Counted from the first letter of the stretch, positions 1,919 through 41,401 are shown. The stretch is 64,000 bases of DNA from Candidatus Marinacidobacterales bacterium (GCA_965250115.1 CBDFNJ010000001.1:747334-811333); one strand, 5' to 3'. Program-made: numbers and translations. Notes: generated from the letters alone by a model not told the origin.

Positions 1919-2602
1919 CTACGCACGCTCCATTTTGCGAAACGCTCCTTCTGATTGTACGAAAACCACGTCGGCCATGCCGATGAAAAGCCCCGAGTCC
2001 ACGACGCCGGGAACACCATCGATCAGCTCTTCGAGCTCGGAAGGAGAGGTGATCCGCTCGAACCGAGCATCGAGAATGTAATTGCCGTTGTCGGACCGGT
2101 AGGGGGCTTCTCCCACCGAGCGTAGCTCGACCTCGGAGCCCAGCGACTCGAGTTTCCGGCGCGCGACCGGAGCCGCAAAAGGAACGACCTCGACGGGGAC
2201 GCTCATTCGTTCGCCGAGATTCTTGACGATCTTCTCGTCACCCACCAGCACGACGAAGCGCTCGGAGACGGAGGCCACGACGCGTTCTCTCAGCAGGGCG
2301 CCTCCGTGTCCTTTGATCAGATCGAGGTTGGGGTCGACCTCGTCCGCTCCATCGACGTCGATATCCACGGAGGCCACTTGGTCGAGCGTCGTCAGGGGGA
2401 TTTTGAGCTCTTCGGCGAGCTCGGCGGTACGAATAGATGTCGGCACGCCCCGAACCGAAAGTCCGTCCTGGGTCACACGCTCGGCCAGCGCCCGTACGAA
2501 CATCGCCGCCGCACGGCCCGTACCGAGCCCGACGACCATACCGGACTCGACCATTTCGACGGCCGCGAGCGCCGCGGGCCAGATGGGAGGCTCGTCACTC
2601 AT
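1919..2602 (-). CDS. rpiA: Ribose-5-phosphate isomerase A
   Basis: GLGTG, DGADEVD, LIKGHGGALLRE, SDNGN motifs; ATG at 2602 chosen over the ORF-track start at 2617. Confidence 0.95.
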   Translation of the reverse strand: MSDEPPIWPAALAAVEMVESGMVVGLGTGRAAAMFVRALAERVTQDGLSVRGVPTSIRTAELAEELKIPLTTLDQVASVDIDVDGADEVDPNLDLIKGHGGALLRERVVASVSERFVVLVGDEKIVKNLGERMSVPVEVVPFAAPVARRKLESLGSEVELRSVGEAPYRSDNGNYILDARFERITSPSELEELIDGVPGVVDSGLFIGMADVVFVQSEGAFRKMERA

Positions 2603-25292: not shown

Positions 25293-27741
25293 CTATTGCT
25301 CGGCGCGCAGGGTCGTCGCCGGATTCGAACGCGCGGCCCGACGCGCCGGGATATAGCTCGCCACGAAAGCGACGGTTGCGAGAAGGGCGACGACCATCGT
25401 CAGCGTGAGAGGGTCTCTCGGGCTCACCTCGAACAAGAGACTCGCGATGAAGCGTCCGAAGAAGAGAGACGCGGTGACGCCCACGAGCAAGCCGATCGCG
25501 GTCACTCGCATTCCGTCCCGAAGAATCATCTTCTTGATGTCACCTGGACTGGCTCCGATCGCCGAGCGGATGCCGATCTCTCGAAACCGCTGCCTCACGG
25601 AATAGGCCATGACGCCGTAGAGACCGATCGCGGCGAGACAGGCGGCGATCCCGGCCAATACGGCCGCGAGCACGCTACCGAATCGCTCCGTCGCCAGCAC
25701 GCCGGCGGTGTGCGAGGCGAAGTTGATGACGTCTCCGGGCGGAAGCTCCGGATAGATCTCGGCAATCGCCCGACGCAGGTCTCGCGCGACCTGCTCCGTC
25801 GCTCCGCTCGCCCGCACCACCAAAGACAGATAGTTCGCCGAGGCCAACTCCTGGTCGTAGGGCAGGTACCAGACGGGCCGATCGATTCTGAAGTTGTAGC
25901 GGTTCTCCTTGACGTCGGCGACGAGGCCGACGACCGTCATCCACGGTGCGTCTTCGGAGGCGGCGCCTGCTTTGATGCGTTTGCCGAGCGGATCCTCACC
26001 CGGCCAGGCTCGCTCCGCAAGCGCCTCGCTGACGACGACCACCCGCTCCGCGCCTTCGCGGTCCCGCTCGTCGAGGGGACGTCCACGGAGGAGGGAAAGC
26101 TCTAGGGTCTCCAAATAGCCGGGGCTCACGAGCCGGTGCGCCGTCATCGGTTCCGAGGCGTCTCGAGCCGCCGGAGCCGCCCCTTCCACCGTGTAGCGTG
26201 CATCCCACGTGCCGTGACGCAAGGGGATACCGGTCGTGGCGGCGGCCGAGGCCACGCCCGGCACGCCGCGCGCCCTCTCGACGAGACGTTCGATGAAGGC
26301 GGCACGATCCCGATGTTCGGGAAAACGATCTCCCGGCAGCGTGAAATCGAAGCTCAAGACGCCCTCGGGTCTGAAGCCGAGCTCGAGACGCGACAGCCTG
26401 CCCAAGCTCTGGCTGAGTAGCGCGGCGCTCACCAGCAGTGTGATCGAGACCGCCACTTCGACAGCGACGAGCGAGGCCGAGAGGCTCCCGGAGCTCGAGG
26501 AGCCTCGACCTGGCGAGTCCGAGTGCGGTGTCTTCTGGAAGCTCGCGCGCATCACACGCACGGCGGGAGAGAGGGCGAAGATCAAGACGGTTCCGAGGCT
26601 CGCGCAGGCCGCGAAGAGGAAGACGCTCCCGTCCATGGGAATCGAGCCGGAAAAAACCCGTATAGGCTTCCTCGCGCAATGGGCTCAAGGCCATGAGCGC
26701 AGGAATCAAGGCGCGAGCGAAGACGAGGCCCGCGACGCCACCGAGTATCGCCACCAGAACACTCTCACCGAGTAGCTGGGCGAGGAGCTGTAAACGCCCC
26801 GCACCGATCGCGGACAAGAGCGAGAGCTCGCGCTCCTGCTCGAAGAAACGCGCGAGGTAGAGATGAGCGACGTTCACGCAGGCGGTAAGAAACATGAAGA
26901 GCACCGCCGCGGAGAGAGCGTAGACCATCGCACGGATACGCCCCTGAAAGTCGCCGAGAAGAAAACTGCGAAGCGGGATGAGGGCGATACTCCAACCCTC
27001 GTTCGTTTCGGGCGAGTCTTTTTCGAGATCCCGAGCGATCTGAACGAGATCCGCCTCGGCCGCGTCGAGCGTGACGCCAGGCAAGAGCCGTCCGATCATG
27101 GTGTTCGAGTGGCTCGCGCGGTCGTAACCGACGAGCTGGCCGAGGTCGAAGCGGCGTGGGAGCCAGACTTCCGTTCGTCGTGGAAGGTCGAAGGCTTCGG
27201 GAAGCACCCCGACGACGGTATGAAGATTCCCCGTCGAGGCGAGAATCCCCGCGTCGGCGGCGAATCGGCGCAGCCAGAGCCCGTGACCTACCAGAGCCGC
27301 GGCGGGGCCTCCGAGAGTGTCTTCCTCTCTCGTGAATCCCCTTCCGAGCACGGGCGAGACCCCGAGGGTCACGAGGTAGGAGCGCGCGATCTAGGCCGCC
27401 TCGACGCGCTCGGCGATATCCCCATCGAGGGGATCGAGGCCGAGCCCCTCCATCGTTCGAGCGAGACCGAGGCTCTCGAAGGACCGACTCCGATCGATAT
27501 AGGCCTGGATCTCGAGCGGTGAGACGCCATAGGGCTCCACACCATCGCGCATCGCCATGAAGAAGGCGACGTCGTCCACGTTCTCGACGGGTGTCGGCCG
27601 CAGGAGCAGCCCATTGACGACGGTGAAGATGGCCGTCGCGGCGCCGATGCCGAGAGCGAGACAGGCTACCGTCGTGATCGTGAAGAGGGGTCGCTTCCAG
27701 AGCTTCCGAAACGAGATCCGGAGAAGTTGGATGGGGCTCAT
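25293..27741 (-). pseudogene. ADOP/MacB-FtsX duplicated permease, split over three frames
   Basis: LALGIGAATAIF (27391-27741); LGVSPVLGRGF...ACVNVA (25996-27372); GLYGVMAYSVRQRFREIGIRSAIGA (25293-26636); two frameshifts, near 27390 and 26640. Confidence 0.85.
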
Positions 27742-27758
27742 GACGGAATGCCGGCGAG

Positions 27759-28421
27759 CTAGAACGGAGGCTCGTCCGCTTCCTCTCCCGCTTCCGGCAG
27801 CTCGCCGACGTCGCTCAAGACGGAGTCGATCTGCTCTTCCGTCAACCCCTCGCTATTGGCACGCAAATCCCTCGCGAAGCCGTCCGCCTCCGTGCCGCAG
27901 TCCGGCTTCTCGAGCTCGTCGGCAACGCAGCGCGGGTGCACGTGGATGGGCATCGTTCGATACTGGCTTCCGAACTCGAGCTCACGACCGAGCACCACGC
28001 GCAGGCTTCCTTTCTCCATCACTTCGCCGCAGAACTTGCACTTGGCGCGGCCCGAGGGATCGACCTCGACGTAGGGAATGCGCTTCCTCGCCTCCTTCTT
28101 CTCCTCGGCCTCCTCGTGCAGCTTGCGAAGCTCCTCGATCGAGGGGACCTCCTCGGGCGGGTCTTGCGCGAATTGCCAGGCCTCGATCCGGTAGGCTTCC
28201 TCGACGTCCTCGAGGCGCCGCTTCGCCGCACAGGTCAAGTGGTGCCATAAGTGTCCGAGACCGAAAGGTCCCTCGATGAGGACACCGAGGCGAAGCACAC
28301 CCTTGTCGATCTTCTTGCGGCACGATTTGCACTTCGCTTGAGCCGAGCGCGCCCCTTCGATGATATAGGCGGGCTTCTCCGGTTCGGGCTCGCCGGTTCC
28401 GGGTTTGATCTCGTCTGGCAT
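27759..28421 (-). CDS. Stand-alone protein with two PARP-type zinc fingers
   Basis: EGARSAQAKCKSC..I.KG.LRLG...WHHLTC and EVDPSGRAKCKFC...KG.LR...HPRC (C-x2-C...H-x2-C). Confidence 0.82.
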   Translation of the reverse strand: MPDEIKPGTGEPEPEKPAYIIEGARSAQAKCKSCRKKIDKGVLRLGVLIEGPFGLGHLWHHLTCAAKRRLEDVEEAYRIEAWQFAQDPPEEVPSIEELRKLHEEAEEKKEARKRIPYVEVDPSGRAKCKFCGEVMEKGSLRVVLGRELEFGSQYRTMPIHVHPRCVADELEKPDCGTEADGFARDLRANSEGLTEEQIDSVLSDVGELPEAGEEADEPPF

Positions 28422-28571
28422 CAGTGACTCCTGTTCGTGCGGCCTAGCATGGCCTATGCCATCCTAGGGACGCAACAAGGCGGCAAGACCCCAAAAAGCG
28501 CATCGAAGCCTTCACAGCGCAAAACCTTATACACAAAAGATTTAGCATGCAATCGCCGTGCGAGAACGGAG

Positions 28572-28600
28572 TTGAACTTCGCTTTCACGACCCGCATAAT
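28572..28600 (+). promoter_or_regulatory. Candidate sigma70 promoter for the kinase gene
   Basis: TTGAAC, 17 nt spacer, CATAAT. Confidence 0.45.
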
Positions 28601-28646
28601 GACAGTAGAATTACATTCCAATTCCGTTTCAGGGGGTCTCGACCGC

Positions 28647-31600
28647 GTGGATTGCCCATCCTGCGGCCAGTCAGGTGCCTCGGATCGCCTCGAGTGCGAT
28701 CAGGGCGGCGCCTTGCTGGTCGATGTCTTCGAAAGCGACGATAGCAAGACCGATCCGATCCAGGTGATCGGAGGGGAGGGTATTCCCGCTGAAGACCAAG
28801 AGTTTCTCCGCGCCGCGAACGAAGCCGGGCTAGGCGAGTCGTCTCCTCGCGAGTCCCTGAGCCGACTCCCGACCGCCATCGACTACACGGGCGACCTCCC
28901 GCGTTTGTTCCGCTTCGGGGACCGATATCAGATCCTGGAAAAGCTCGGCGAGGGTAGCATGGGTCGCGTCTATAAAGCGCTCGATCTCGAGCTCGACCGC
29001 CCCGTCGCGCTCAAGACCATTCGCGTCGAGAAGGGCGCGGGCCGTGACCTTCTCGAGCGATTCAAGCAGGAGCTGATTCTCGCTCGCAAAGTGACGCACA
29101 AGAACGTCATCCGCATCTACGACCTCGGCGAGGCCGAAGGGATGAAGTTCTTCACGATGGAGCTCGTCGTGGGCAAGAGTCTTCGCGATCTTCTCGAGGA
29201 AAGCGGAACGCTCTCGGTCGCCGAGACCCTCTCGTTCATGAAGCAGATGCTCCTGGGGCTCGCCGAGGCCCACAGCGAGGGCGTCGTTCATAGAGATCTG
29301 AAGCCGCAGAACGTGATGGTAGACGGTGGTGGGGTCCTCCGCATCATGGACTTCGGCATTGCGCGGACCGCGGACTCCGCGACCATCACGGGCACGAGCG
29401 AGATGATGGGAACGCCCGACTATATCTCTCCCGAGCAAGTCAAGGGCGAGAAGGCGGACGCGAAATCCGACCTCTATTCGTTCGGTATCATCCTCTACGA
29501 GCTTCTCACGGGAGAGACCCCCTTCAGCGGCGAGACCGCCGTCTCTAAGATCGTTGCCCGTCTGCAGACCACACCGAAGCCTCCGCGCTCTTTGAACGCC
29601 GAGATACCCGGCTACCTCGAGCGCATCATTGTGAAGTGTCTCGAAGTCGATCCCGAGCTTCGCTACGCGAGCGCCGAAGAGGTTCTGAAGGATGTGGAGC
29701 GAGAACAGGTGGACCGATCCCTTTGGCCGCGTGTGCGAAAAGCGATCTCCCGACGTAAGGGGTGGGTCTTCGCGACGGCGGCCGCCTTGGCGGCTGTCCT
29801 CGCTTGGACGCTCGTCCCGGATCCGCAACCCATCGACGTGACCACCATTGCCGTCCTCCCATTTCACAACCAGACCCAAGCCGCGGACCTCGAGTGGATG
29901 GAGAACGGCCTTGCCGATCTACTCATCACGGATCTCTCGCAGTCGCGGGCCCTTCGTCCCTTGATGGCCGACAGCATTCACAGCGTACTGCAGGTGCTCG
30001 GCAAGACGGACGAGACCCGCCTCGACGAGGAGACTCACGGGGTCGTCGCGAGTCGGACCGGAGCGGACTTCACGCTCTCCGGCAGATTCTTGCAGGCCAA
30101 CGAGAAGCTGCGCGTCGACTTGAGCCTGAGACGCTCGACCACCGGCGTCGATACGATCGTGAAAGTCGAAGGTCGTTCCTCCGAAGTCTTCACGCTCGTC
30201 GACGCGATCGCCGAGAAAGTCAGCGACGAGCTAGCGCCCAATGCCTGGCGCAGGAAGCGATCGTCTGAGAACATCCCTCTCGAGGCGGTACGAGCCTATC
30301 AACAGGGCTTGCTTGCTCTCCGCGATGGCGCCCACCAAAGCGCCGTTCCCAAGTTTCGAGAAGCGGTCGAGCACTATAGCGAGTACGCGATGGCGCATGC
30401 GAAGCTCGCCGAAGCCCTCTTTCACATGGGGGATCAAGCCTCGGCGTCGCAAGCCATCGAGAGGGCCCGCGAGCTCGAGACGGACAAGCAGCTTCCGACT
30501 CTCGAGACGTATCAACTCCACGCGATCGCCGCGCGAATCGAGGACGATCCCGAGGCCGCCGTCGAAACCTACCGGGAGCTCTCCGATCTCTATCCGGAAT
30601 CTCCCGACATCCTCTTCAATCTCGCGAGCTCTCTCGAGACGGCGGGTGAGATCGCCGAGGCGACGGATACCTACCAGCGCGTCGTGGCCAAGTCTCCGGA
30701 CTATGGCGGCGCCATCCTGGGCCTCGGACGGCCCCTGGTCGTCAGCCGAAAACCGGATCAAGCGATCGAGGTTCTCGAGGAAGCTCTCGAGGCGGGCTAT
30801 TTCCAGGGCGACGCGGAGTCCCTCGGAATGGCCTACTCCGTGCTCGGCGTCGCCCACCGGGCTCTGGGCAAATACGACGCGGCGCTCGTCGAGCTAAGAA
30901 AGTCTCTGGAGCACCGCCGAGGGGCGGACGACAAGCGCGGGATTGCGGCAACTCTGACGAACTTGGCCGGAGTCCACTTGGAGCTCGGTGAGCACGAAGC
31001 GGCGAGCTCCCTTTTGACGGAAAGCCTCGCCGTCGCACGGGAGGCTGAGAATTCCACCATGGAGTCCTTCGCTCTCGTGAACCTCGCGAACGTTAGACGG
31101 AATATAGGAGAGCTCGATTCGGCCCTCGAGTACTTTAGGTGGTCGCTCACGATCGAGTGGGAAAAAAAGGACCATAAGGAGCTCGCCGATCGCATGAATG
31201 AAGTTGGACTAACTTACTTCAGCCGCGGCCTGTACGCGGACGCGGAGACCTACCTGGAGCAGGCCAAGGTGCACCTCGCCGTGAGCGACATGCCCGATGA
31301 AAAAGCCGCGAACCTCCTGCTCCTGGGGAGCATCTACAGAATGAAGGGCGCCTACACGGAGTCGGTCCAGGCCCTCCTCGGTGCCGTGCCCCTGTTCTTG
31401 GACGCCGGACTGCCGGGAGGCGCCGCCGCTGCCAGGACGGAGCTTTCGGCGATCTACCTCGCCCAGGGCCGGCTTCGAGATGCGCTCAGCTCCGCGGATC
31501 GTGCGGTCACGGAATCGGAGCCGTCGGGAGACTTCGAAACGCACGCCCGTTCGCTGATCCAAAGGGCTCTCTGCCTGACCCGATTGGGACGCTCGGGCGA

Positions 31601-32219
31601 GGCCGAGGAGAGCCTGGGGCGAGCGGCGAGGGCTCTCGGAAAGAGAAAGCTCGTGGAGATCGAGCTGCTCCGCGATTTGGCGAGAGGTCGGCTATCGCAA
31701 GAGCTCGGAGACCATCGCAAGGCCATGCGACAGCTCGAGACGGTCGAAAACGACGCTCGACGATTCGGCCACTTGGCGCCCAAGCTCGAAGCATTGCTAC
31801 ACCTTGGCGATGCGCATCTCCGTGTCGGCGAGCCTCGGGAGGCGATTGAGCTGTTCCGAGAGGTTCAGGAAGAAGCCTCCAGCCGGCGACTCCGTCCCCT
31901 CATGGCAGAGGCATTTCTTGGAATGGCGGAAGCACAGTCGACGCTGGGCGAGGCTGTGTCCGCGCTCGAGCTCGTCGAGAGGGCCACGAGACTGGCCGAG
32001 TCCCTCGAGGCTCGCCCTTTACTCGTTCGAGCGCTTCGCCTCGAGGCCGCGATCGCGAAGAAGGCGGGCGCGTTCGAACGCGTGGCCGTTGCGGAGAGCA
32101 AGTGCCGGGAGCTCGAAAGTTGGCTGGCTCAGCACGACGCTCCCACCAACGCGTCCTCAGCGAGCGGACAAAAAAAAATAGCGGCCTCGAAGTCAGCCGC
32201 TATTGTAAGAAAGTGCTGA
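28647..32219 (+). CDS. Membrane Ser/Thr protein kinase: degenerate Zn-ribbon, Hanks kinase, TM helix, TolB-N/FlgO-like domain, long TPR array
   Basis: GTG at 28647 after AGGGGG; LGEGSMGRVY, VALK, HRDLKPQN, DFG, GTPDYISPE; TM WVFATAAALAAVLAWTLV; IAVLPFHNQ; many TPR-like helical repeats. Confidence 0.92.
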   Translation: MDCPSCGQSGASDRLECDQGGALLVDVFESDDSKTDPIQVIGGEGIPAEDQEFLRAANEAGLGESSPRESLSRLPTAIDYTGDLPRLFRFGDRYQILEKLGEGSMGRVYKALDLELDRPVALKTIRVEKGAGRDLLERFKQELILARKVTHKNVIRIYDLGEAEGMKFFTMELVVGKSLRDLLEESGTLSVAETLSFMKQMLLGLAEAHSEGVVHRDLKPQNVMVDGGGVLRIMDFGIARTADSATITGTSEMMGTPDYISPEQVKGEKADAKSDLYSFGIILYELLTGETPFSGETAVSKIVARLQTTPKPPRSLNAEIPGYLERIIVKCLEVDPELRYASAEEVLKDVEREQVDRSLWPRVRKAISRRKGWVFATAAALAAVLAWTLVPDPQPIDVTTIAVLPFHNQTQAADLEWMENGLADLLITDLSQSRALRPLMADSIHSVLQVLGKTDETRLDEETHGVVASRTGADFTLSGRFLQANEKLRVDLSLRRSTTGVDTIVKVEGRSSEVFTLVDAIAEKVSDELAPNAWRRKRSSENIPLEAVRAYQQGLLALRDGAHQSAVPKFREAVEHYSEYAMAHAKLAEALFHMGDQASASQAIERARELETDKQLPTLETYQLHAIAARIEDDPEAAVETYRELSDLYPESPDILFNLASSLETAGEIAEATDTYQRVVAKSPDYGGAILGLGRPLVVSRKPDQAIEVLEEALEAGYFQGDAESLGMAYSVLGVAHRALGKYDAALVELRKSLEHRRGADDKRGIAATLTNLAGVHLELGEHEAASSLLTESLAVAREAENSTMESFALVNLANVRRNIGELDSALEYFRWSLTIEWEKKDHKELADRMNEVGLTYFSRGLYADAETYLEQAKVHLAVSDMPDEKAANLLLLGSIYRMKGAYTESVQALLGAVPLFLDAGLPGGAAAARTELSAIYLAQGRLRDALSSADRAVTESEPSGDFETHARSLIQRALCLTRLGRSGEAEESLGRAARALGKRKLVEIELLRDLARGRLSQELGDHRKAMRQLETVENDARRFGHLAPKLEALLHLGDAHLRVGEPREAIELFREVQEEASSRRLRPLMAEAFLGMAEAQSTLGEAVSALELVERATRLAESLEARPLLVRALRLEAAIAKKAGAFERVAVAESKCRELESWLAQHDAPTNASSASGQKKIAASKSAAIVRKC
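32170..32204 (-). terminator. Rho-independent terminator for the small peptide gene
   Basis: 9-bp stem AATAGCGGC (32177-32185) / GCCGCTATT (32196-32204); A9 run at 32170-32178 gives the U-tract on the minus strand. Confidence 0.8.
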
Positions 32220-32228
32220 TGAGCAGCT

Positions 32229-32288
32229 CTAGAACTGCTTGCCGTGCTGGCCGGACCAGCCGGATCGAATCCGTGTCTTCACCTGCAT
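32229..32288 (-). CDS. 19-aa peptide MQVKTRIRSGWSGQHGKQF, putative C39-processed precursor (below the ORF-track cutoff)
   Basis: Hand translation; AGGAGG at 32302-32297, 8 nt before the ATG; own promoter and terminator. Confidence 0.78.
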   Translation of the reverse strand: MQVKTRIRSGWSGQHGKQF

Positions 32289-32343
32289 GGAAGCTTCCTC
32301 CTTCTGATGCTTACCCGCAGCGATACACCGATGAACGTGTCGC

Positions 32344-32372
32344 AGGATAAACGGCCCTTTTCGTGGTGTCAA
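32344..32372 (-). promoter_or_regulatory. sigma70-type promoter of the peptide gene
   Basis: TTGACA (32372-32367), 17 nt spacer, TATCCT (32349-32344). Confidence 0.72.
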
Positions 32373-32395
32373 CCCTACAGATCAGTGTAAAAAAG

Positions 32396-32456
32396 TAACA
32401 TGTTATGGGGACTTCCCCCCGACTCGTAAACCCTTGCTAGCGTAGGGGAAACCCCT
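32396..32456. promoter_or_regulatory. Palindromic candidate operator boxes
   Basis: TAACATGTTA 32396-32405, GGGGACTTCCCC 32407-32418, AGGGGAAACCCCT 32444-32456. Confidence 0.5.
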
Positions 32457-32602
32457 CTCCCTTGAAGCCGAGACGAGCCCGACGTCGTTGCGAAACCCTC
32501 TCTTAGATTGACTATGAATTCTTAAGAACATTGACTATTATGAGACAATCTGATTGAGCGAATTGACAATGTCACCTTACAGATGTTGTCTATTAATTGA
32601 CA

Positions 32603-33634
32603 ATGAGCGTCAGGACGAAAGACCGAATCCTGAAATACCTCGGTTCCCATCCGGGGGCGGGAGGCAAGGCGCTGCGCGAGCACCTGGGTGTCAGCCGACA
32701 AGCCTTGAGCGTCCACCTTCGCGATCTGGTCCGCGAGGAAAAAATAGTCAAGTCCGGTTCCACGCGTGGGGCAAGCTACCAGCTGGCCGGCTCACAACCG
32801 CAGCCTCGGAAAGCGTCGCGGCGCGCCGTGCTCGAGGGCCTCGACGAAAGCCTCGTCTACGACGAGCTCGCCACGCGATTGAACTTGGGCTCTGAGCTTC
32901 GAGGCAACGTGCGCGCTTTGGTGCGCTACGGCTTCACGGAAATGCTCAACAACGCCATCGATCACTCGAAAGCCGAAACCTGCAACGTCTCTCTGGAGAT
33001 CGATTCGGCGAAGGTGGCTTTCGACGTGAAGGATCGCGGGGTAGGAGCGTTTCACTCCATCGCTTCCAAGTTCTCGCTCCCCGACGAGGAAGCCGCGATG
33101 ATCGAGCTCCTCAAGGGCAAGACCACGACGGCGCCGGAGCGCCACACGGGAGAAGGGATCTTTTTCACCGCCCGTGCCGCCGACGAGCTCACACTGCGCT
33201 CCCACCGTCTCCAGCTGGAGTGGAGCAAGAGCCGAGACGACGTCTTCGTCTCCGAGAGACGCCACATCGAGGGCACCCACGTAAGCGTCACGTTGTTTCA
33301 CGCCACACGACGCCGTTTGGAGGACGTCTTCCGGGAGTTTGCTCCGGCAGATTACGACTACGAATTCCAGAAAACGAGAATTCTCATTCGGCTGCTGCGG
33401 CGTGACTACGTCTCGCGTTCAGAGGCCAAGAGGCTTCTCACGAACCTGGACAAGTTTCGGGAGGTTCGGCTCGACTTTAGAGACGTACAGTCGGTAGGCC
33501 AGGGCTTCGCGGACGAGGTTTTCCGCGTCTTCGCTCGAGAACATCCTGACGTCCTAATCGTGCCGGCGCGCGCGTCACCCGCGGTTTTGGCCATGCTTCG
33601 CCACGTCGGCTACGCGGGCGCGGGCGAGCACTAG
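32603..33634 (+). CDS. wHTH + HATPase-like + STAS-like (DUF4325) protein
   Basis: N-terminal HTH (LGVSRQALSVHL), TEMLNNAIDHS, DRGVG, GEGIFF, LDFRDVQSVGQGFADEVFR. Confidence 0.85.
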   Translation: MSVRTKDRILKYLGSHPGAGGKALREHLGVSRQALSVHLRDLVREEKIVKSGSTRGASYQLAGSQPQPRKASRRAVLEGLDESLVYDELATRLNLGSELRGNVRALVRYGFTEMLNNAIDHSKAETCNVSLEIDSAKVAFDVKDRGVGAFHSIASKFSLPDEEAAMIELLKGKTTTAPERHTGEGIFFTARAADELTLRSHRLQLEWSKSRDDVFVSERRHIEGTHVSVTLFHATRRRLEDVFREFAPADYDYEFQKTRILIRLLRRDYVSRSEAKRLLTNLDKFREVRLDFRDVQSVGQGFADEVFRVFAREHPDVLIVPARASPAVLAMLRHVGYAGAGEH

Positions 33635-33647
33635 TTCTTCGCGGCCA

Positions 33648-35465
33648 TCACGGATGGGCGACGACGACGAGAGATTTCGCCCGATCGCGGGCGCAGATGA
33701 GCGCGCGACGAAGGTTCCCGGGATCGAGGGCCGCGAAGCTCTCGTCGAGAAGCACGAGATCACCGCCCTGAAGCAGCGCCCGCGCGAGGAAGGTGCGACT
33801 CCGCTCGCCGTGAGAGAGCTGCCAGCCCGTCTCGCCGACGAGCTGGTTCATCCCCCCGGCATCTTCTCGAGAAGCTCTCCGAGACCGAGCTCCGGGGCAA
33901 GACCTTCGGCCTCCTGCCAGTCCTTAGCACTCGGCGGCCAACGGCGTCCCATCAAAAGGTTGAAGGCGAAGGTCTCGGTGAAGACGTGGCTCTCGTGAAA
34001 CTGAGGGGCCGTCGCGATCCGCCGCGTCCATCCGTGCGCTCCCAGGCTCTCCCGATCGAGTCCCTTCAGACGAAGCCGACCGGACGTCGGTGTCCTGAGT
34101 CCGTTCAGAAGCGAGAGCAACGTCGACTTGCCACCTCCGGAGGGAGACGTCAGAAGAACGCGGTCGTCAGGTCCGAGGCGAAAGCGGCCGTCACGAATCG
34201 TCGCTTCGGCGCGGCCGGGATACTGGAAGAGAAGATCCTCGGCAGTCACGGTGGCCGCCTCGTTCTCGGCGCGCGCATTGGGATCCCCTGGAAGAGGCTC
34301 GCGGCTGGCCGCGCGAAAGAGTGGCTCGACGCGTCCCCAGGCGATGACGGCGTCGAGGAGCGCAGACAGACCGTCCGTGAGTTTCTTCAAGGCTCGCGAC
34401 GCCAGGATCGTGCCGCCGAGACCGACGGCCACCCGCTCTATGCTCGCTCCACCGCCGACCATGGCGGGAGCGAGGCCGAGAAGGCCGATCGGAAGCCAGG
34501 CGCGATGGGCGACTGCGAGAAAGCGCTTCAGATGGTCCACCTCGCGCGATCGATCGAGATAGCCCGAAAGGCGTGCGTCTTCTTCGTCGTACTACGCCTC
34601 GGGCGCTTGCTGCGCGAGCCGGGTGCGATGGCCGACCATGAGCTCGAGGAGCGCGGCCATAGAGAGCAGTCCCCCCGAGAGCGCGAGTGACTCCACGGCT
34701 TCGGACTCGAAGACTCTCGCGAGGTGTCGGCCGGCGCCGTCCCGCCGGGTCTCGTCCGGCTCGAGACGCATCGCGCCGAGAAGGAGTCGCCTCTTGAGAA
34801 GACCTCCCGCCGCGACGGCGATCTTTCCCTCGTACCACGTCGAGAGCATGCGAAAGGGAAGCATGGTCAGAAAGACGAGCGCCCAGGCGGAAAGCCACCC
34901 CCAGTCGATGCGACCGCTGAGCGCACCGCGGCCGATGAGCCACCAGGAAACGATGAAGAGGCCGTAGTCGATCGCGTAGGTCGACGCGAAGGCGAAAGCG
35001 AGCGACTTGAGCCGCGTGTCTTTGACCTCGTCTCGGAGAGAGCCCGGACGTTCCCTGAGAAGCCACACCCGCTCGCGGACCACGCCGCTTTTTCGCTCGG
35101 TGGTGAGGTGTTCTTTCGCCCGCCGCCGCGCGTCGGGTGCGAGGTCGAGAGAGTCGACTACGCTCTCTACCTCATTCGGACCATCGCCAGTCGTCTCGCG
35201 TTCGAGGGCTTCCACGGGGTACAGGCGTTCGCTTCCCCGCTCGTCTAAAACACGAACGTTCCTCGAGCCGCCACGCGTCATGAGAAGGAATCGACCGCGC
35301 TCGAGAGCTAGAATAGCTGGAGCGCCCGAGCACAGGAACTTCGGCACTTCGGCCTTCGACAGTGTGAGTGGTTGCGCTTCAACGCCTGCGAACCTCGCCG
35401 CGGAGACGAGCCACTCGTCGAGCTCTCCTTCGGGCGGCGGCGCGAGCGCTCATCGATTCTTCCTT
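33648..35465 (-). pseudogene. Second ABC exporter subunit (TMD+NBD), frameshifted and internally deleted
   Basis: Fragments 34592-35347, 33848-34540 (SPSGGGKST) and 33648-33851 (LSHGERSR..LLDESFAALD); the TMD is too short at LLEL|MVGHRTRLAQ; 5' boundary approximate. Confidence 0.8.
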
Positions 35466-37762
35466 CGCGCAATCGAAAGCGCCGCCATGAGCTCTCAGAC
35501 CAGAGCGCCTCGAGCTCTCGATCGGCGTCGCGGAGACGAGCGAAGCGAGATCCCGGAGCCTCGAGAAGCGCTTTCGGCGATCCATCCTCGGCGAGGCGTC
35601 CCCCTTCGAGAACGAGCACACGGTCGAAGCCCTCGGCTTCGGCGATGTCATGGGTCACGCAGAGCAGCGTCGCGTCCCTCCACAGTCGACGCGTACGAGC
35701 GAGAAGCTCTCCCCGCCGCTCCCGATCGAGCCCTCCGCCTTCGCCAAGCGGCCTGCTCCCTCCGTCGGGGAGACCTTGGAGCACAGACCGCAAATCCGCG
35801 AGCTCGAAGACGGAAGCGACGTCGCGCGCGTCGTTTCCGTAGCGCAGATTCTCGACGAAGCTTCGATTCCAGATCTGAACCTCCGGGTCGACCCAGGCGA
35901 TCTCACGCCTCACCGACGCGAGACGGTCGCCGCTCAAGATCCCCCCGTCGACGACCACGCGGCCCTCGTCGGGAAAGTGCCAGCCGAGCGGCAGACTGAG
36001 CAGGGAGGTCTTTCCCGCACCCGAGGGGCCCACGATTGCCACGTGGCTTCCCGGCTCGATGACGAGGTCGATCGTCTGAAGGATCGCGTGGCCGGCAGGG
36101 CGCAGGTTCACTCCCTCGAATCGAAGGGACATAGCACGGGAGTCCGCTACCTTCGAGCTCGAACCATCCGCCTTGGGCGCGACCTCGGTCTCCTCGAGGG
36201 CACGCAAGGGCTCCCCGAGTCGCAAGCTCACGTTCCGAAGCGCCGGATAGCGCCAGCAGAGAGAAACGAGCTCGAGCCCGAGGACGGGAAGGTTGAGCGC
36301 CCAATAGGCGAGTAGAAGGACGGCGGCCGTTTCTCCCCCGGCGCCTAGATAGGTGAACAGCAGAAACACGATGAGACCGTAGCCGGCAAGGAACTGCGCG
36401 CCACTCAGACCAACGGCGACCCGCTGCAAACCGAGCCTCGCACGCGCCCAGTGCACGAGCAGAGCCTCGTGCTCTTCTCGCATCGCGCGCTCCGCGCCAT
36501 GAGCTTTGAGGGGGACGAGACCGAGCAGCGCATCGAGGTAGAAGCAACTCAGTCCACCCAGGTGGCTCCTCACGCGAAGGTCGCGCTCGTGTAGAAGCCT
36601 CTGCCCGGCGATGGGAATCACGAGGGCCGCGACGAGCATCAGGAGAACGAAAGGCGCGGTACCTGGCGCGAGCCAAACGATGGCAGCCGCGGTAAGAGCG
36701 AGCTCGAAGCCGGCGCGCGCAACCTGCCCGGTCAGTTGCGGTACGGTCCTCAACAGGTGGCTCGAGTGGTTGCGCTCGGCCATATCCGACACGAGACGAC
36801 TTCGAAAATAGCGGTCCGAGAGACGAGCTACTTTCCGCTGAAGCGCGAGACGAAGCCGCGACGAGGAGCGACGGAGCCGCCCTACCCTCTTCGAAGACCT
36901 GCCGGAGCAAGTCGCGGAGCGGGCGCTCGGGAGTTTCGTCGCGGGCGGCATCGATGCGCGTTGAAAAAGAGCTCACTTCCACCGGCTCTTCGCTCGGCCG
37001 GACGAGCACGGCGCCGCGGACCTCGAGCATCGCGCCTTCGCCCGGCCGCTCAGACCGCGCAGACCATGCAGAAAAGTAGCGCTCGGGAATTGCGCCAGGT
37101 TGTTGCTTTTCTTTCTCGTAGAGAGCCCGCGCGAGCGCGAGACCGTCCCGTCCGAGGCCCGCAGCGGAAGCAGCTCGGAAGTCGGCGTCGAGGTCCGCGA
37201 GCGAGCGCCAGTCAGGATCAGAAAGAGCCTCTCCGAGGAGCGCGGAGGCCTCCTCGGCAGACGCACCGACAGCCGCGAGTCGGCGAGAGAAGCCGGCCGT
37301 CGCTTCCTTCGCACCCGCCCAGGCTCTCCAGTCCTCGGCCGCAACCTCCATCCGGTGCTCGAAGAGCTCGGCCATGAGCTCGACACGCGTCAGCCAGCGA
37401 CGGCCGGAGGCGGGATCCATGACTTGGACGAGGCCATGAAATACGTTCCAAATCACGACGAAGTGGGAATTGCCGTTGGGCAGGCGGAAGACGGCGACGG
37501 CGGGCAGGTTCCGAGAGCCCGCGAGCAGCACGTGGTCTCTCGGCACGAGAACCTGCTCGGCCGGCAAGCCAAAGTAGGTCGCAAGCTCCTCGAGAGTCTC
37601 GATAGCCGTGCCATCGACGTCCGTTTGGCAGGCTTCACGGAGCCTCCCGTAGCTCACGGGAATGCCGTGGCCCTCGAGAAAGGCCTTCAAGGCTGCCGGA
37701 CCGCAGTCCATTGCCGAGGACTGCACGACCTCCGGGATGAGCCTCTTTCTGCCAGCTGCCAT
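35440..37762 (-). pseudogene. C39 peptidase-containing ABC exporter (PCAT), frameshifted and deleted
   Basis: QSSAMDCGPAAL, HFVV and VMDP (Cys-His-Asp triad intact); frame change near 36900; GPSGAGKT present but signature and Walker B missing at LGEGGG|LDRERR. Confidence 0.85.
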
Positions 37763-37959
37763 GGTAGTTTCGGGCGTGAGGCAGTGTACCAGTTCTAACT
37801 CTTTTATCCAGAACCTTTAAGACTCAACGAGGACTTGTCTCGATGGGACGCTTTGAGTACAATCGCTTGTTTCGCGCCGACGGGGGTACACACCTCGCCC
37901 AGAAGGGCGGCGCGGCATAAACAACGGTCCAAACCAATCGAACAGGAGGTACACGTTCT

Positions 37960-38715
37960 ATGGAACCCGCTTCCTCGAAATCGATGATCGAGGCACTCGG
38001 TCTTACCAAGTACTACGGTCCGTTCATCGCGACCGAGAACATCACCTTCGCCATTCCGCAAGGGCAGATCGTTGCCTTCCTCGGACCCAACGGTGCCGGT
38101 AAGACCACGACCATGAAGATGCTCTCGGGTTACCTCGCCCCGAGCGAAGGGGCGGCGAGGATCGCCGGGCTCGACGTGCACAAGGAGCGAATCGAAGCTT
38201 CCAAGCGGCTCGGCTATCTGCCCGAGAACGGCCCGCTCTATCCGGACATGACGCCGCTCGAGCTCCTCACGTTCTTCGGAGAGGCTCGCGAGCTCGGCCC
38301 CAAACTGTTGAGAGAGCGCATCGATGCCGTGCGTAGCCTCTGCGCGCTCGAGCAAGTCCTCGAGAAACCCATCGGGAAGTTGTCCCGAGGATTGCGACAA
38401 CGTGTGGGGCTCGCGCAAGCGCTTCTGCACGACCCGGACGTTCTCATCATGGACGAGCCCACGGCCGGTCTCGACCCCAATCAGATCCGCCAGTTCCGCG
38501 AGAACATCAGGACGCTGGGACGAAACAAAACGATTCTCATCTCGACCCACATCTTGCAGGAGGTCGAGGCCGTGGCCGACTACGTGCTCTTCGTCAACAA
38601 CGGACGGATGGTCTTCGAAGGTACGCCCGCGGAGTTGAAGGACGGCGCCTCACTCGAGAAGCCTTTCTATCGTCTGACCCACCAGGCCGACGAGGAGGCG
38701 AGCGTCAATGTTTGA
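37960..38715 (+). CDS. ABC ATPase (GldA-like)
   Basis: GPNGAGKT, LSRGLRQR, IMDEPTAGLD. Confidence 0.9.
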   Translation: MEPASSKSMIEALGLTKYYGPFIATENITFAIPQGQIVAFLGPNGAGKTTTMKMLSGYLAPSEGAARIAGLDVHKERIEASKRLGYLPENGPLYPDMTPLELLTFFGEARELGPKLLRERIDAVRSLCALEQVLEKPIGKLSRGLRQRVGLAQALLHDPDVLIMDEPTAGLDPNQIRQFRENIRTLGRNKTILISTHILQEVEAVADYVLFVNNGRMVFEGTPAELKDGASLEKPFYRLTHQADEEASVNV

Positions 38716-41401
38716 GAAGATCAATTTCAATATCGTGCGAGCGATCGTCAAACGAGATCTGAAGATGTACTTCTCCAATCCCACTGGCTACGTTTTCATC
38801 ACGCTCTTCATCTTCCTGAGCGCGGCGGCGGCGTTCTGGCAGGACCGCTTTTTCCTGAACAACCTGGCCAATCTGGATCAGCTCAACACCGTCTTCCCCT
38901 ATCTGCTCGTATTCTTCGTCCCCGCGCTCACGATGTCCGTCTGGGCGGCAGAAAAGAACCTCGGGACGGACGAGCTGCTGCTCACCCTCCCTGCGACCGA
39001 TCTGGAGATCGTGCTCGGGAAGTTCCTTGCCGTCTTGTCCATCTACACGGTTGCGCTCGGACTGTCGCTCAGCCACGTCATCGTTCTGCTGTGGCTCGGA
39101 AGTCCCGACCTGGGTCTCATGTTCGCCAACTACCTAGGTTTCTGGCTCGCGGGAGCCGCGCTCATCGCGGTCGGTATGGTCGCCTCGCAGCTGACGACCA
39201 ATGTCACCATCGCGTTCATTCTCGGCGCCGTGCTCTGCGGCCTCGGTGTCTTCGTCGAGCCGATGGCCGGCATTATCAGTCAGAGCATGGCGCGACTAGT
39301 GGAGCCGCTCGGCGTCTTCCCGCACTTCGAGGATTTCGGCCGCGGAGTCGTAAGCGTGACGGGTCTGCTCTACTTCGTCTCTGTGATCGGGCTCTTCCTC
39401 TACGTGAACGTAGTTCTTTTGAGTCGCAGGCACTGGCCACGCGAAGCCGAAGGCCTCCGGATGTCGACGCATCAGATCATCCGTGCCGTCTCCGTCGTCG
39501 TGATTCTCGTGAGCGCCATCGCTATCATCGGCCGACTCGGGCTGCGCCTCGACACCACGGCTGAGCGACTTCACTCGCTGACGGCCGAGACGAAACAGCT
39601 CCTGCGAAAGCTCGACGCAGACCGCCCCGTCTTCGTCCAAGCCTATTTGAGTCCCGAAGTTCCCGAGCAATACGTCCAGACACGGGCGAACATCATTGGC
39701 CTCCTCAAGGAGATGGCCTCGGTCAGTGGTGGCAAAGTTCAAGTCCTCATGAACGAGACTGAGCCGTTCTCCGAGGAGGCCCGCGAGGCCCGGGAGAAAT
39801 TCGGGATTCAACCACGCGAGATTCCCAACCTCGCGGGCGCCAGAGCGGGGTTTTCGGAAGTCTTTCTCGGACTCGCTTTCACTTGCGGCGCCGAAGAACA
39901 GGTCATCCCTTACTTCGACCGTGGGCTTCCCGCCGAGTACGAGATCGCCCGCGGTATTCGCGTCGTAGCCAATACGGAGCGCAAGAAGATTGGCGTCATC
40001 AATACCCAGCTCCGGCTGTTCGGCGGGCTCGACTTCAACACGATGCAGTCGACTCCGGCCTGGTCGGTCGTGGATGAGCTTCGGAAGCAATACGAGGTCG
40101 TCCAGATCACACCGTCGAGCGCCATTACCGAGGAGGTCGATGGACTGCTCGTCGCGCTGCCCTCGACGATGACACAGGAGGAGATGGGTAACGTTCTCGA
40201 AGTCATCGAGAGGGGAACCCCCGCGCTACTTCTCGACGATCCACTGCCCATCGTCAACTTGAGCCTTGCGCCCTCGGAGCAGGCCGGTGCCAGTAGAAAT
40301 CCCTTCATGAGCCAGGGGCAGCCACCGCCGGAGCCGAAGGGTGACATCCGGGGGTTCTTCGATCGTCTCGGCTTTCGTTGGGAACCGGCGATTGTCGTGT
40401 GGGACACCTACAACCCCCATCCCGATCTCGCCCATTTGCCGCCTGAGGTGGTGTTCCTTGGCCGCGGCAACGAGAACCCCGACGTTTTCAATCCGAACGT
40501 TCCGGCATCCGCCTCGTTGCAGCAGCTCGTGCTGCTCTACCCCGGCCAAGTCGAATCGGCCTCGAAAGAAGGCCTGACGTACCAGCCGCTTCTCGCCACC
40601 GGTGTCTACTCGGGGCGGACTCCCTACTCGCTGATGGTCCAGCGCAACTTTCTCGGAGCGTCATTGAATCGCAACCTGCCTCACCGTCCCGACCCGATGA
40701 GCTATACGATCGCGGCTGAGGTCAAGTCCGCGCCGGACACGGGCGAGGGCGAGGACGAAAGCGAGAGCGATGAAATCGGGTCGCCGATTCACGTCATCGC
40801 CATGACCGACGTCGATTTCATCTCGGAGCAGTTCTTCGAGATCCGCCGGATGGGCCCCGGGAACTTGAACTTCGACAACGTCACGTTCTTTCTCAACGCG
40901 ATGGACACACTGGTTGGCGATGAGTCCTTCATCGCGCTTCGCAACCGCCGCGTCCGCCACCGCACACTCGCGCGGGTCGAGGACCAGACCCGGACTTTCA
41001 TCGAGCAGCGCTCTCAGGAGGAGTTGGAGGCCGAGCGGCGCGCGGAGCAGGCGCTCGCGGAGGCGCAGCGCCGCCTCGATGGCCGGGTGGCGGAGGTCCA
41101 GGATCGAGACGACCTCGACCAGCAAACGAAACAGATCATGGCGCGCAATCTCCAGGAAGTTGAAAATCGAAGGTTCGAGGTCTTGAAATCGAACATCGAG
41201 TCGGACAAAGAAGTGGAAGTTCGCGCGAGCGAAGAACGGATGGAGTCGCAAATTCGCCGAATCCAGAGCGGTATTCGCACCTCGGCCGTTCTGCTGCCGC
41301 CCATTCCCGTCTTCCTACTCGGAGTCTATATTTTCATCCGCCGCCAGCAGCGGGCCAGGGAAGGCGCCTCGGCGGCGCGCCGCCTGAGAGCCGACGGCTA
41401 G
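38708..41401 (+). CDS. GldF-like ABC-2 permease fused to a GldG-like domain
   Basis: PALTMSVWAAEKNLGTDELLLTLP, VLGKFL; RLDTTAERLHSLT..TK.LL GldG-type start; C-terminal TM. Confidence 0.85.
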   Translation: MFEKINFNIVRAIVKRDLKMYFSNPTGYVFITLFIFLSAAAAFWQDRFFLNNLANLDQLNTVFPYLLVFFVPALTMSVWAAEKNLGTDELLLTLPATDLEIVLGKFLAVLSIYTVALGLSLSHVIVLLWLGSPDLGLMFANYLGFWLAGAALIAVGMVASQLTTNVTIAFILGAVLCGLGVFVEPMAGIISQSMARLVEPLGVFPHFEDFGRGVVSVTGLLYFVSVIGLFLYVNVVLLSRRHWPREAEGLRMSTHQIIRAVSVVVILVSAIAIIGRLGLRLDTTAERLHSLTAETKQLLRKLDADRPVFVQAYLSPEVPEQYVQTRANIIGLLKEMASVSGGKVQVLMNETEPFSEEAREAREKFGIQPREIPNLAGARAGFSEVFLGLAFTCGAEEQVIPYFDRGLPAEYEIARGIRVVANTERKKIGVINTQLRLFGGLDFNTMQSTPAWSVVDELRKQYEVVQITPSSAITEEVDGLLVALPSTMTQEEMGNVLEVIERGTPALLLDDPLPIVNLSLAPSEQAGASRNPFMSQGQPPPEPKGDIRGFFDRLGFRWEPAIVVWDTYNPHPDLAHLPPEVVFLGRGNENPDVFNPNVPASASLQQLVLLYPGQVESASKEGLTYQPLLATGVYSGRTPYSLMVQRNFLGASLNRNLPHRPDPMSYTIAAEVKSAPDTGEGEDESESDEIGSPIHVIAMTDVDFISEQFFEIRRMGPGNLNFDNVTFFLNAMDTLVGDESFIALRNRRVRHRTLARVEDQTRTFIEQRSQEELEAERRAEQALAEAQRRLDGRVAEVQDRDDLDQQTKQIMARNLQEVENRRFEVLKSNIESDKEVEVRASEERMESQIRRIQSGIRTSAVLLPPIPVFLLGVYIFIRRQQRAREGASAARRLRADG

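Follow-up and report, generated by a model that had tools for sequence, protein, structure and literature searches.

The competence pheromone circuit ComC/ComAB/ComDE of Streptococcus pneumoniae combines a ComC leader of about 24 residues, ending in G-G, with a polytopic histidine kinase as the sensor. In this report we present a locus of comparable make-up from a stretch of 64,000 nucleotides of a Candidatus Marinacidobacterales bacterium (GCA_965250115.1, CBDFNJ010000001.1:747334-811333; G000:C1:747334-811333 in our notation), which is called the window below and from whose first letter all positions are counted; the genome (G000) comprises 6.37 Mb in two contigs with 61% G+C. The likeness to the streptococcal circuit extends over a ribosomal precursor, a short leader ending in small residues, an ATP-binding cassette (ABC) exporter with a C39 peptidase, a co-encoded membrane sensor kinase and fast-diverging cores. 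The locus differs from it in that the candidate sensor is a Hanks-type Ser/Thr kinase with a tetratricopeptide repeat (TPR) ectodomain, the leader is ten residues long with [AS]-G at its end, the exporter is a heterodimer from two genes and has additional domains, the hosts are diderm and a response regulator is absent.

As regards the exporter, class II microcin secretion (CvaA/CvaB/TolC type) likewise employs a diderm C39 ABC exporter, there with an HlyD adaptor, and the NHLP/Nif11 exporters (TIGR03796/TIGR03797) likewise form a two-gene pair of a peptidase and a non-peptidase subunit; the present exporter departs from both in its CydC/CydD-like transport parts, the linker domain (about 190 aa), the N-domain of subunit 2 (about 250 aa) and a predicted cargo of 5-9 residues. 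As regards the receptor, the RRNPP proteins (Rap, Rgg, NprR, PlcR, PrgX) are cytoplasmic TPR transcription factors or phosphatases that bind re-imported linear peptides of 5-10 residues. The common element is the TPR domain, in RRNPP receptors a binder of short linear peptides; in the present locus the TPR region is predicted to lie outside the membrane and is fused to a kinase. PknS of Xanthomonas citri is a transmembrane Hanks-type kinase which phosphorylates an ECF (extracytoplasmic function) sigma factor and whose periplasmic region of three TPRs is needed for function, with a ligand that is not known (PMC13147305). The kinase described here has, by prediction, the same arrangement of a cytoplasmic kinase domain and a periplasmic TPR region. 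It differs in the size of the TPR region (about 650 aa), in having a candidate ligand gene next door, and in that the conserved genes of the module showed no ECF sigma gene. In the full-text literature, with supplementary files outside the scope of this and of the later search, no ribosomal peptide ligand was found for any bacterial Hanks-type receptor kinase, and we know of none. We favour, with moderate confidence, the reading that the locus belongs to a conserved module of C39 exporter, precursor and TPR kinase, in which the kinase would be tied to the exported peptide, most likely as its sensor.

The precursor gene and its conservation

By gene content and order, the window locus is one instance of a conserved four-gene module made up of two exporter subunits, a precursor of 15-20 codons and a convergent membrane Ser/Thr kinase. 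A preliminary description of the window had proposed the kinase, the 19-codon gene and the C39 exporter, all of which were confirmed by open reading frame (ORF) and domain analysis. Its layout was correct as well: the kinase and peptide genes stand tail-to-tail with a gap of exactly 9 nt in the window sequence, and the two-gene exporter, described as lying about 1.4 kb beyond on the peptide's strand, ends (3') at 33648, 1360 nt from the peptide start. What had been overlooked is an opposite-strand gene (32597..33634) between the peptide and the exporter.

The precursor gene (32288..32229, minus strand, ATG to TAG) reads MQVKTRIRSGWSGQHGKQF, is conserved in 14 genomes and is preceded by a GGAGGA Shine-Dalgarno site; the product divides into the 10-residue leader MQVKTRIRSG and the 9-residue core WSGQHGKQF. 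Upstream, on the same strand, there is a sigma-70-like promoter (32344..32372; TTGACA, 17 nt, TATCCT; one site against 0.3 expected in shuffles), the region of which is 96% identical in the sister species G001. Downstream, an intrinsic terminator (32168..32204, minus strand) consists of a 10-bp stem (32204..32177) followed by T9. Because Shine-Dalgarno site, promoter-like site and terminator are all present, the peptide gene is by these signals a complete small transcription unit. The terminator lies inside the kinase 3' end in the window strain, where the kinase has a run of nine A (A9) at 32170-32178. The run is A8 in G001 and in the public sequencing runs X2, X5 and X6; in this form the kinase stops 13 codons earlier, ahead of the hairpin, and the terminator falls just past the kinase stop, between the two convergent stop codons. 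The last 13 kinase codons, as well as the 9-nt gap, thus belong to the A9 form only. The peptide gene itself (32229-32288) is free of differences in contigs of four public runs from three studies.

In the whole genome, a leader motif followed by a short tail is found a single time. As the motif is unique there and recurs at the same place in relatives, the comparison excludes a chance origin of the 19-codon ORF, and the gene is almost certainly real. For this comparison the kinase was used as query in 41 related genomes, and 19 loci of up to 20 kb were taken and scanned in six frames; the unpublished genome G027 was excluded from all counts. Both exporter subunits were found in 11 of the 19 kinase loci, and each of these 11 also carries the peptide ORF, always between the exporter 3' end and the kinase 3' end and on the exporter's strand. 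In a twelfth locus (L023) the peptide ORF is present and the contig stops before the exporter position. Seven of the 19 loci, belonging to more distant or fragmentary kinase relatives, have neither exporter nor peptide. Carriers of the peptide total 14 genomes from nine genera and two families, including a short contig of G005. The association proposed from the window alone was in this way found to recur near kinase orthologues, for the peptide ORF in 14 genomes and for the exporter in 11 of 19 loci.

All copies start with ATG and have a purine-rich site 5-12 nt upstream. The first ten residues of the 14 sequences follow the pattern M-[KQTR]-V-[KR]-[TS]-[RKN]-[IVL]-[KRQ]-[AS]-G, with Thr or Ser at position 5 in every one of them. 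Val3, Thr5, Arg6 and Gly10 are each encoded by four different codons across the set, with the residue kept; as leader residues persist through synonymous codon changes, this indicates that selection acts on the encoded protein. The tail is variable and 5-10 residues long, with the ending [KR]-[KQR]-[FY] in nine of the ten genomes belonging to the window's family. Comparison of the family sequences places the boundary between the conserved and the variable part exactly after Gly10, which agrees with the leader/core split after SG that had been suggested earlier. Between G000 and G001 the promoter, 5' untranslated region, leader and terminator are 95-99% identical, and a 15-nt block in the core is replaced. 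In the kinase of the same two genomes 75 of 1191 codons differ synonymously (about 6%), next to 98 amino-acid changes, mostly in the sensor half. Since a core block was replaced against such a low synonymous difference, the core changes much faster than neutral sites, as would be expected either from diversifying selection or from local replacement in a single event. A second leader-type peptide gene was observed in L029 (G012; 2068-2121, minus strand), about 2.4 kb from the first and near another TPR-coding stretch.

The exporter and the leader family

Subunit 1 of the exporter consists of the C39 peptidase, the linker domain, a transmembrane domain (TMD) and a nucleotide-binding domain (NBD), and subunit 2 of the N-domain, which has no Pfam family, followed by TMD and NBD. 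Peptidase_C39 matches subunit 1 of the window with 72 bits, and the catalytic residues Gln14, Cys20, His100 and Asp116 are invariant in 43-44 family sequences, that of the window included, as in an active-type cysteine peptidase. By its C39 domain the exporter is a peptidase-containing ABC transporter, placed by these comparisons outside every curated subfamily. The intact orthologue from G003 is not a member of the NHLP pair, with 141.4 bits against 853.3 for TIGR03796 and 99.5 against 709.4 for TIGR03797, and the TMD/NBD parts are closest to those of CydC/CydD. The N-domain of subunit 2 was found in 1056 cluster representatives at E<=1e-3 and in 817 at E<=1e-10.

The leader was followed by a pattern scan (a Shine-Dalgarno site and ten degenerate codons) over 185,579 species genomes, in which each locus is an 8-kb block of fixed position, whatever the place of the match within it. 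At least 120 stretches were obtained against about 4 expected by chance from our own bit count (38 bits over 1.2e12 positions); a few of those listed may be chance matches. By record titles, 66 belong to Acidobacteriota, 34 to Pseudomonadota, 8 to Chloroflexota, 6 to Planctomycetota and 6 to other phyla. A looser protein regular expression recognised 238 peptides in 118 of the listed loci, the commonest lengths being 16, 19, 17 and 18 aa and tandem arrays reaching 10 copies. Both the pattern and the regular expression fix Gly10 and restrict position 9, and these two columns are therefore conserved partly by construction. The cores fall into several types: ..[LV]WG., G..IDPNG, GG..WGG, Cys-rich, long cores and multi-unit precursors. 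The long-core proteobacterial branch (23-66 aa, ending ..RC[VA]G[IAL]) was found at nine loci (L042, L043, L058, L060, L083, L100, L103, L133, L139), adjoining a conserved protein of about 630 aa without a Pfam family, possibly a modifying enzyme. The ..RC[VA]G[IAL] ending resembles a CaaX box. The multi-unit precursors (41-103 aa; L045, L050, L052, L062, L091, L157, L170) carry internal leader repeats of the form ..NHN[QE]T...GLKVKTxVKAG.., and the leader motif may also work inside the chain, with several peptides per precursor.

Neither the 47-aa ORF of the window nor ten longer family members, searched at E up to 1 or 10, had a credible match in Pfam and NCBIfam (including the bacteriocin-type signal, NHLP and Nif11 models). 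In protein collections, the 120 relatives listed are unnamed or termed 'hypothetical protein' and have no Pfam domain. No description of the peptide family was met in the full-text literature, queried with leader strings, concepts and double-glycine screens; one paper that came up (PMC4833913) concerns leader-gene spacing and is irrelevant to it. The peptides form a large and apparently undescribed family of very short, putatively secreted molecules, possibly signals. The preliminary description had read the system at one locus, which stood; it had missed that the leader belongs to a widespread family and that the usual HlyD adaptor exists. HlyD is encoded directly upstream of the C39 gene in all seven usable loci of the phylum sample described below, is present in the sister family and is absent from the locus of the window's family. 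An isolated HlyD-like fragment of about 100-150 aa, akin to the adaptor of this exporter family, lies elsewhere in the own genome (C2:1733187-1733663), with no exporter nearby, and is possibly a relic of a complete system.

Parts specific to the exporter family were found in 23-35 of the 120 listed 8-kb blocks, and an ABC or HlyD cluster member in 40; overall, exporter homologues are put at roughly 40-45 of the 120, so that the two-gene C39 exporter and an HlyD protein are common neighbours of the peptides. Cultured carriers of the peptide family, by record title, include Methylomicrobium lacus 22M6SE5-12, Steroidobacter gossypii S1-65 and Methyloglobulus morosus KoM1. For the reverse test, 300 genomes were drawn evenly from the phylum, eight of which carry subunit 2; by the regular expression, peptides were recognised at three, perhaps four, of these eight exporter loci. 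The leader family thus travels with this C39 exporter family, and the peptide is quite likely the exporter's substrate, with [Ala/Ser]-Gly at leader positions 9-10 as the candidate motif. A complex prediction of the C39 domain with the 60-aa multi-unit precursor of the same locus (L170) scored 0.00 and gives no evidence either way.

The variety of cores also bears on the idea that the peptide is the precursor of a ribosomally made and post-translationally modified peptide (RiPP), whose core would be altered chemically, either ahead of export or following it, by an enzyme with its gene elsewhere, and which would be inactive in its unmodified form. The long-core branch beside the 630-aa protein at nine loci and the existence of multi-unit precursors speak for this, as does a resemblance of the kinase's sensor part (aa 434-847, the only part aligned) to TIGR04510, a putative peptide modification system cyclase (89.3 bits, below the cut-off of 400). 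No modifying enzyme is, however, conserved in the window's module, where exporter, peptide and kinase are all that both families have in common, and the recurrent neighbours across the family are transport and signalling genes. We regard the RiPP reading as improbable.

In the window both exporter genes are remnants, as had been noticed before, with three lesions each. They were mapped by tblastn with the intact G003 orthologue and with contigs of the four public runs (X1, X2, X5, X6); the sizes are taken from contig coordinates and are possibly off by a base or two. In subunit 1 (35440..37762, minus strand) about 200 nt are missing at 36852-36860, in the linker/TMD part, with a frameshift; about 96 nt at 35727-35733, from the ABC signature to Walker B; and about 116 nt at 35440-35448, at the 3' end of the gene. 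Subunit 2 (33648..35347, minus strand) has lost about 165 nt of the TMD in frame (34633-34652) and one C at 33851, shifting the frame in the NBD, and carries a TAG stop at 34592-34594 where two runs have a sense codon. The TMDs and NBDs are accordingly not intact in the window; the orthologues read in a single frame. One X1 contig equals the window over 32100-35487 and a second spans 35558-36036, so that five of the six lesions are covered, and no listed X1 piece bridges the junction of about 200 nt at 36852-36860; possibly X1 is the sample from which the window itself derives. X2, X5 and X6 represent near-identical strains with longer exporter forms, X2 and X5 holding both forms, and X5 and X6 have a 2-nt insertion of their own at 34413. 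G001 has one frameshift per subunit, at places other than in the window. As undeleted exporter forms are seen in near-identical strains, the lesions in the window are by this comparison recent. A second exporter of this family was not found in the own genome and, with the only copy dead, the circuit in this strain is probably broken and not running now.

The decay raises the question whether in this organism the small protein is not exported and has a role within the cell, for example that of a basic mini-protein or of a kinase substrate via Thr5, or is an inert relic. The exporter is dead both here and in G001, yet neither the peptide ORF nor its signals are damaged or differ between strains; the constant Thr or Ser at position 5 would likewise suit a kinase substrate. 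The leader, Thr5 included, is however equally conserved in loci without a kinase, and for that reason its conservation follows the exporter. Moreover, with lesions so recent, the intactness of a 60-nt gene says little. An intracellular role or a relic is in our view very improbable.

The membrane kinase and the proposed circuit

The membrane Hanks-type Ser/Thr kinase is encoded by 28599..32219 (plus strand), as judged from Pkinase and TPR matches, within a longest ORF starting at GTG 28437 (28437..32219). The start at 28647 given earlier was not upheld: because orthologue homology begins upstream of it, at residues 7-19 counted from ATG 28599, the latter is probably the start. The Pkinase domain (196 bits) covers aa 110-364 (about 28926..29690), and the HRDLKPQN, DFG and SPE motifs visible in the translation place the protein among Hanks-type kinases. 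TPR matches of many families span aa 555-1110 approximately. The single hydrophobic helix reads WVFATAAALAAVLAWTLV (about 29763..29816) and is preceded by RVRKAISRRKG with six basic residues and followed by the acidic and Pro-containing PDPQPIDV. As basic residues precede the helix and acidic/Pro residues follow it, the positive-inside rule predicts an N-in/C-out topology, with an extracytoplasmic alpha/beta domain and a TPR superhelix (29817..32216); the extracytoplasmic position assigned earlier to the TPR region is thus predicted again. An AlphaFold2 model of aa 425-770 (15 orthologues; mean confidence score pLDDT 82), which begins past the first strand of the alpha/beta domain, shows this small domain followed by the TPR superhelix. 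Foldseek with this model returned TPR proteins only, phmmer of the sensor part against PDB weak TPR matches only, and the Atlas TPR clusters. From the earlier architecture of kinase, transmembrane helix, TolB-like domain and TPR, all parts stood except the 'TolB-like' label, which could not be verified.

Three other assignments of the kinase were rejected. It is not a member of TIGR04510, given the score below cut-off and an output domain that is a kinase, not a cyclase. A role in defence was discarded since the PADLOC matches (PD-T4-6, mad6) are confined to the kinase domain. It is not an RRNPP receptor of the cytoplasmic helix-turn-helix or phosphatase type either, with the TPR region behind a transmembrane helix and fused to a kinase.

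In the phylum sample a Ser/Thr kinase accompanies four of seven unrelated exporter loci, whereas with the 30 kinase loci of the own genome a stretch of 14-20 kb would include one by chance in 6-9% of cases, a figure to be read with the provisos that other genomes may have more kinases and that relatedness makes the genomes less than fully independent. Among the neighbours, Pfam scans identified kinases with a transmembrane helix and TPR near peptides or exporters at L171, L078, L109 and L051, one with PD40 in place of TPR at L136, one with a polytopic membrane domain at L116 and a kinase-STAND-TPR protein at L172. At L174 a protein of 1703 aa, right after the exporter, joins kinase, STAND, TPR, GAF and sigma54 activator parts; at L145 a winged helix-turn-helix (wHTH) TPR protein stands beside a 10-gene peptide array; and at L124, in a Methylomicrobium genome, a TPR-only protein lies between peptides and HlyD. 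FHA domains bind phospho-threonine. FHA-GAF-sigma54 activators are divergent from peptide genes at L048 and L053, and at L136 a kinase, an FHA activator and peptide genes occur side by side, an ABC-cluster ORF lying at the block edge, where only subunit-2 parts were matched. The 16-aa ..[LIV]WG. peptides of L044, L048, L053 and L136 (Acidobacteriaceae and Bryobacteraceae records) adjoin FHA/GAF-sigma54 activators. These class assignments are rough as counts, as the neighbour cluster mixes histidine kinases with FHA/GAF-sigma54 activators and the Ser/Thr kinase ('STK') cluster includes L145 and L124. Sigma54-like sites were found 50-103 nt before 12 of 234 peptide genes, compared with 1.85% of random segments, and TGGCA-N6-TTGC-like sites about 56-63 nt before the ATG at L053, L070, L095, L138 and L151. 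Taken together, the neighbourhoods tie the peptides to Ser/Thr phospho-signalling and fit a signalling circuit.

In the favoured circuit the first ten residues, of the MKVKTxVKAG type, would act as an export leader of unusual shortness, in which basic residues alternate with hydrophobic ones. The C39 domain would cut after the invariant Gly10 and the exporter would free a core of 5-9 residues, in the window's family usually ending basic-basic/Gln-Phe/Tyr. As this family has no HlyD adaptor, release would be into the periplasm, where the TPR region of the kinase is predicted to lie, and a functional bond would link the kinase to the peptide, which it would most likely sense. The cleavage site, the export step and the capture of the core by the TPR region are what we infer from the sequences, and the step from association to the kinase actually sensing the peptide is the most tentative one, which we consider somewhat doubtful. 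The interpretation given in the preliminary description is supported in part: the pairing of leader and exporter, the predicted TPR topology and the decay stood on comparison, and for sensing by the kinase the evidence consists of the conserved gene order and the recurrent neighbourhood.

Several observations weigh against the favoured circuit. G009 (L027) has a kinase of 45% identity, as close as that of some carriers, and no exporter or peptide on a contig of 13.7 kb, which makes it an exception. The candidate cut site is [Ala/Ser]-Gly instead of the usual Gly-Gly/Ala/Ser, the 10-residue leader is to our knowledge shorter than any characterised double-glycine leader, and no bacteriocin-leader model of Pfam or NCBIfam matches the peptides. 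At four of the eight exporter loci of the phylum sample no recognisable peptide was found in the surrounding DNA, a looser scan included. The exporter is broken in the window, in G001 and in the near-identical strains, by differing lesions, with peptide and kinase intact; either the whole module is decaying or peptide and kinase are independent of the exporter. Kinases bearing TPRs are common in the phylum, with many paralogues, and a TPR beside a peptide weighs little alone. The neighbourhoods would fit a kinase that controls peptide production equally well.

This last point leads to an explanation in which the peptide is an exported effector (for instance a very small competition factor of the microcin kind, a matrix factor, or a peptide that binds metals or surfaces), the production or export of which would be controlled, in response to other cues, by the kinase and elsewhere by the FHA-sigma54 activators, with no binding of the peptide by the kinase. 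A C39 exporter with HlyD, as in the seven phylum-sample loci, is the layout of class II microcin and bacteriocin secretion, and tandem arrays of up to 10 different, hypervariable cores resemble effector diversification more than a single signal. Some of the associated kinases are cytoplasmic (L172, L174) and unable to sense a periplasmic ligand, and the sigma54-like promoters with their adjoining activators show regulated production, not sensing. On the other hand, cores of 5-9 unmodified residues fall far below the length of the unmodified bacteriocins known to us, the module lacks a conserved immunity-like gene, just one peptide gene and no HlyD occur in the window's family, and the conserved C-terminal motif of the kinase-linked family suggests a conserved partner. 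We treat an effector as a rather unlikely alternative to the kinase-linked signal.

Other features and meaning of the locus

The gene between peptide and exporter lies in DNA inserted relative to G001 (32455..33640, plus strand, by alignment), which is not part of the module. It encodes, by Pfam, a protein with wHTH, HATPase_c_2 and DUF4325 (STAS-like) domains (32597..33634, plus strand), is absent from this place in G001 and gave no PADLOC match. Ahead of it are four ATTGACWAT repeats at 32507, 32530, 32562 and 32596 (span 32507..32604), against 0.24 matches expected and with no others within the window; these may be operator sites. Divergent from the kinase stands a gene for a 220-aa PARP-type zinc-finger protein (27759..28421, minus strand, 79 bits), held at the same place in nine loci of the window's family and not seen in the loci of the sister family. 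Its position makes it a possible module partner, perhaps a DNA-binding target of the kinase. Further on, an ADOP-family duplicated permease lies in pieces (25293-27741, minus strand), a 116-aa ORF corresponding to model positions 4-111 and a 447-aa ORF to 363-803, with the middle missing; the same pieces are found in G001 at 97-99% identity. A permease of this type agrees with a host in the Acidobacteriota. Rfam gave no match in 27000-39000, and no tRNA was found within the window.

The finding is larger than the preliminary description proposed, as it concerns a whole family, of which the window holds a recently disabled copy. Its leader and exporter occur widely, in at least 120 stretches of genomic DNA for the leader and with 1056 cluster representatives for the exporter, and because most members have only 16-19 codons the family is invisible to gene callers; a model for the leader family would serve genome annotation and peptide mining. 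A further and quite speculative generalisation, which we consider unlikely as it stands, is that MKVKTxVKAG peptides form a large, undescribed class of ultra-short secreted peptides in diderm bacteria, each freed from its 10-residue leader by a heterodimeric C39 exporter dedicated to it, which in Acidobacteriota would be ligands of Ser/Thr receptor kinases with periplasmic TPR ectodomains and elsewhere would act via FHA-sigma54 activators, the TPR region reading the free C-terminus. Peptide signalling in diderm bacteria is poorly documented, and the locus pairs a candidate ligand of 5-9 residues with a defined receptor ectodomain in many genomes, which makes the question directly testable. If the generalisation is true, it would describe a peptide-pheromone system with Hanks kinases at its base, comparable in bacteria to the peptide/receptor-kinase signalling of plants.

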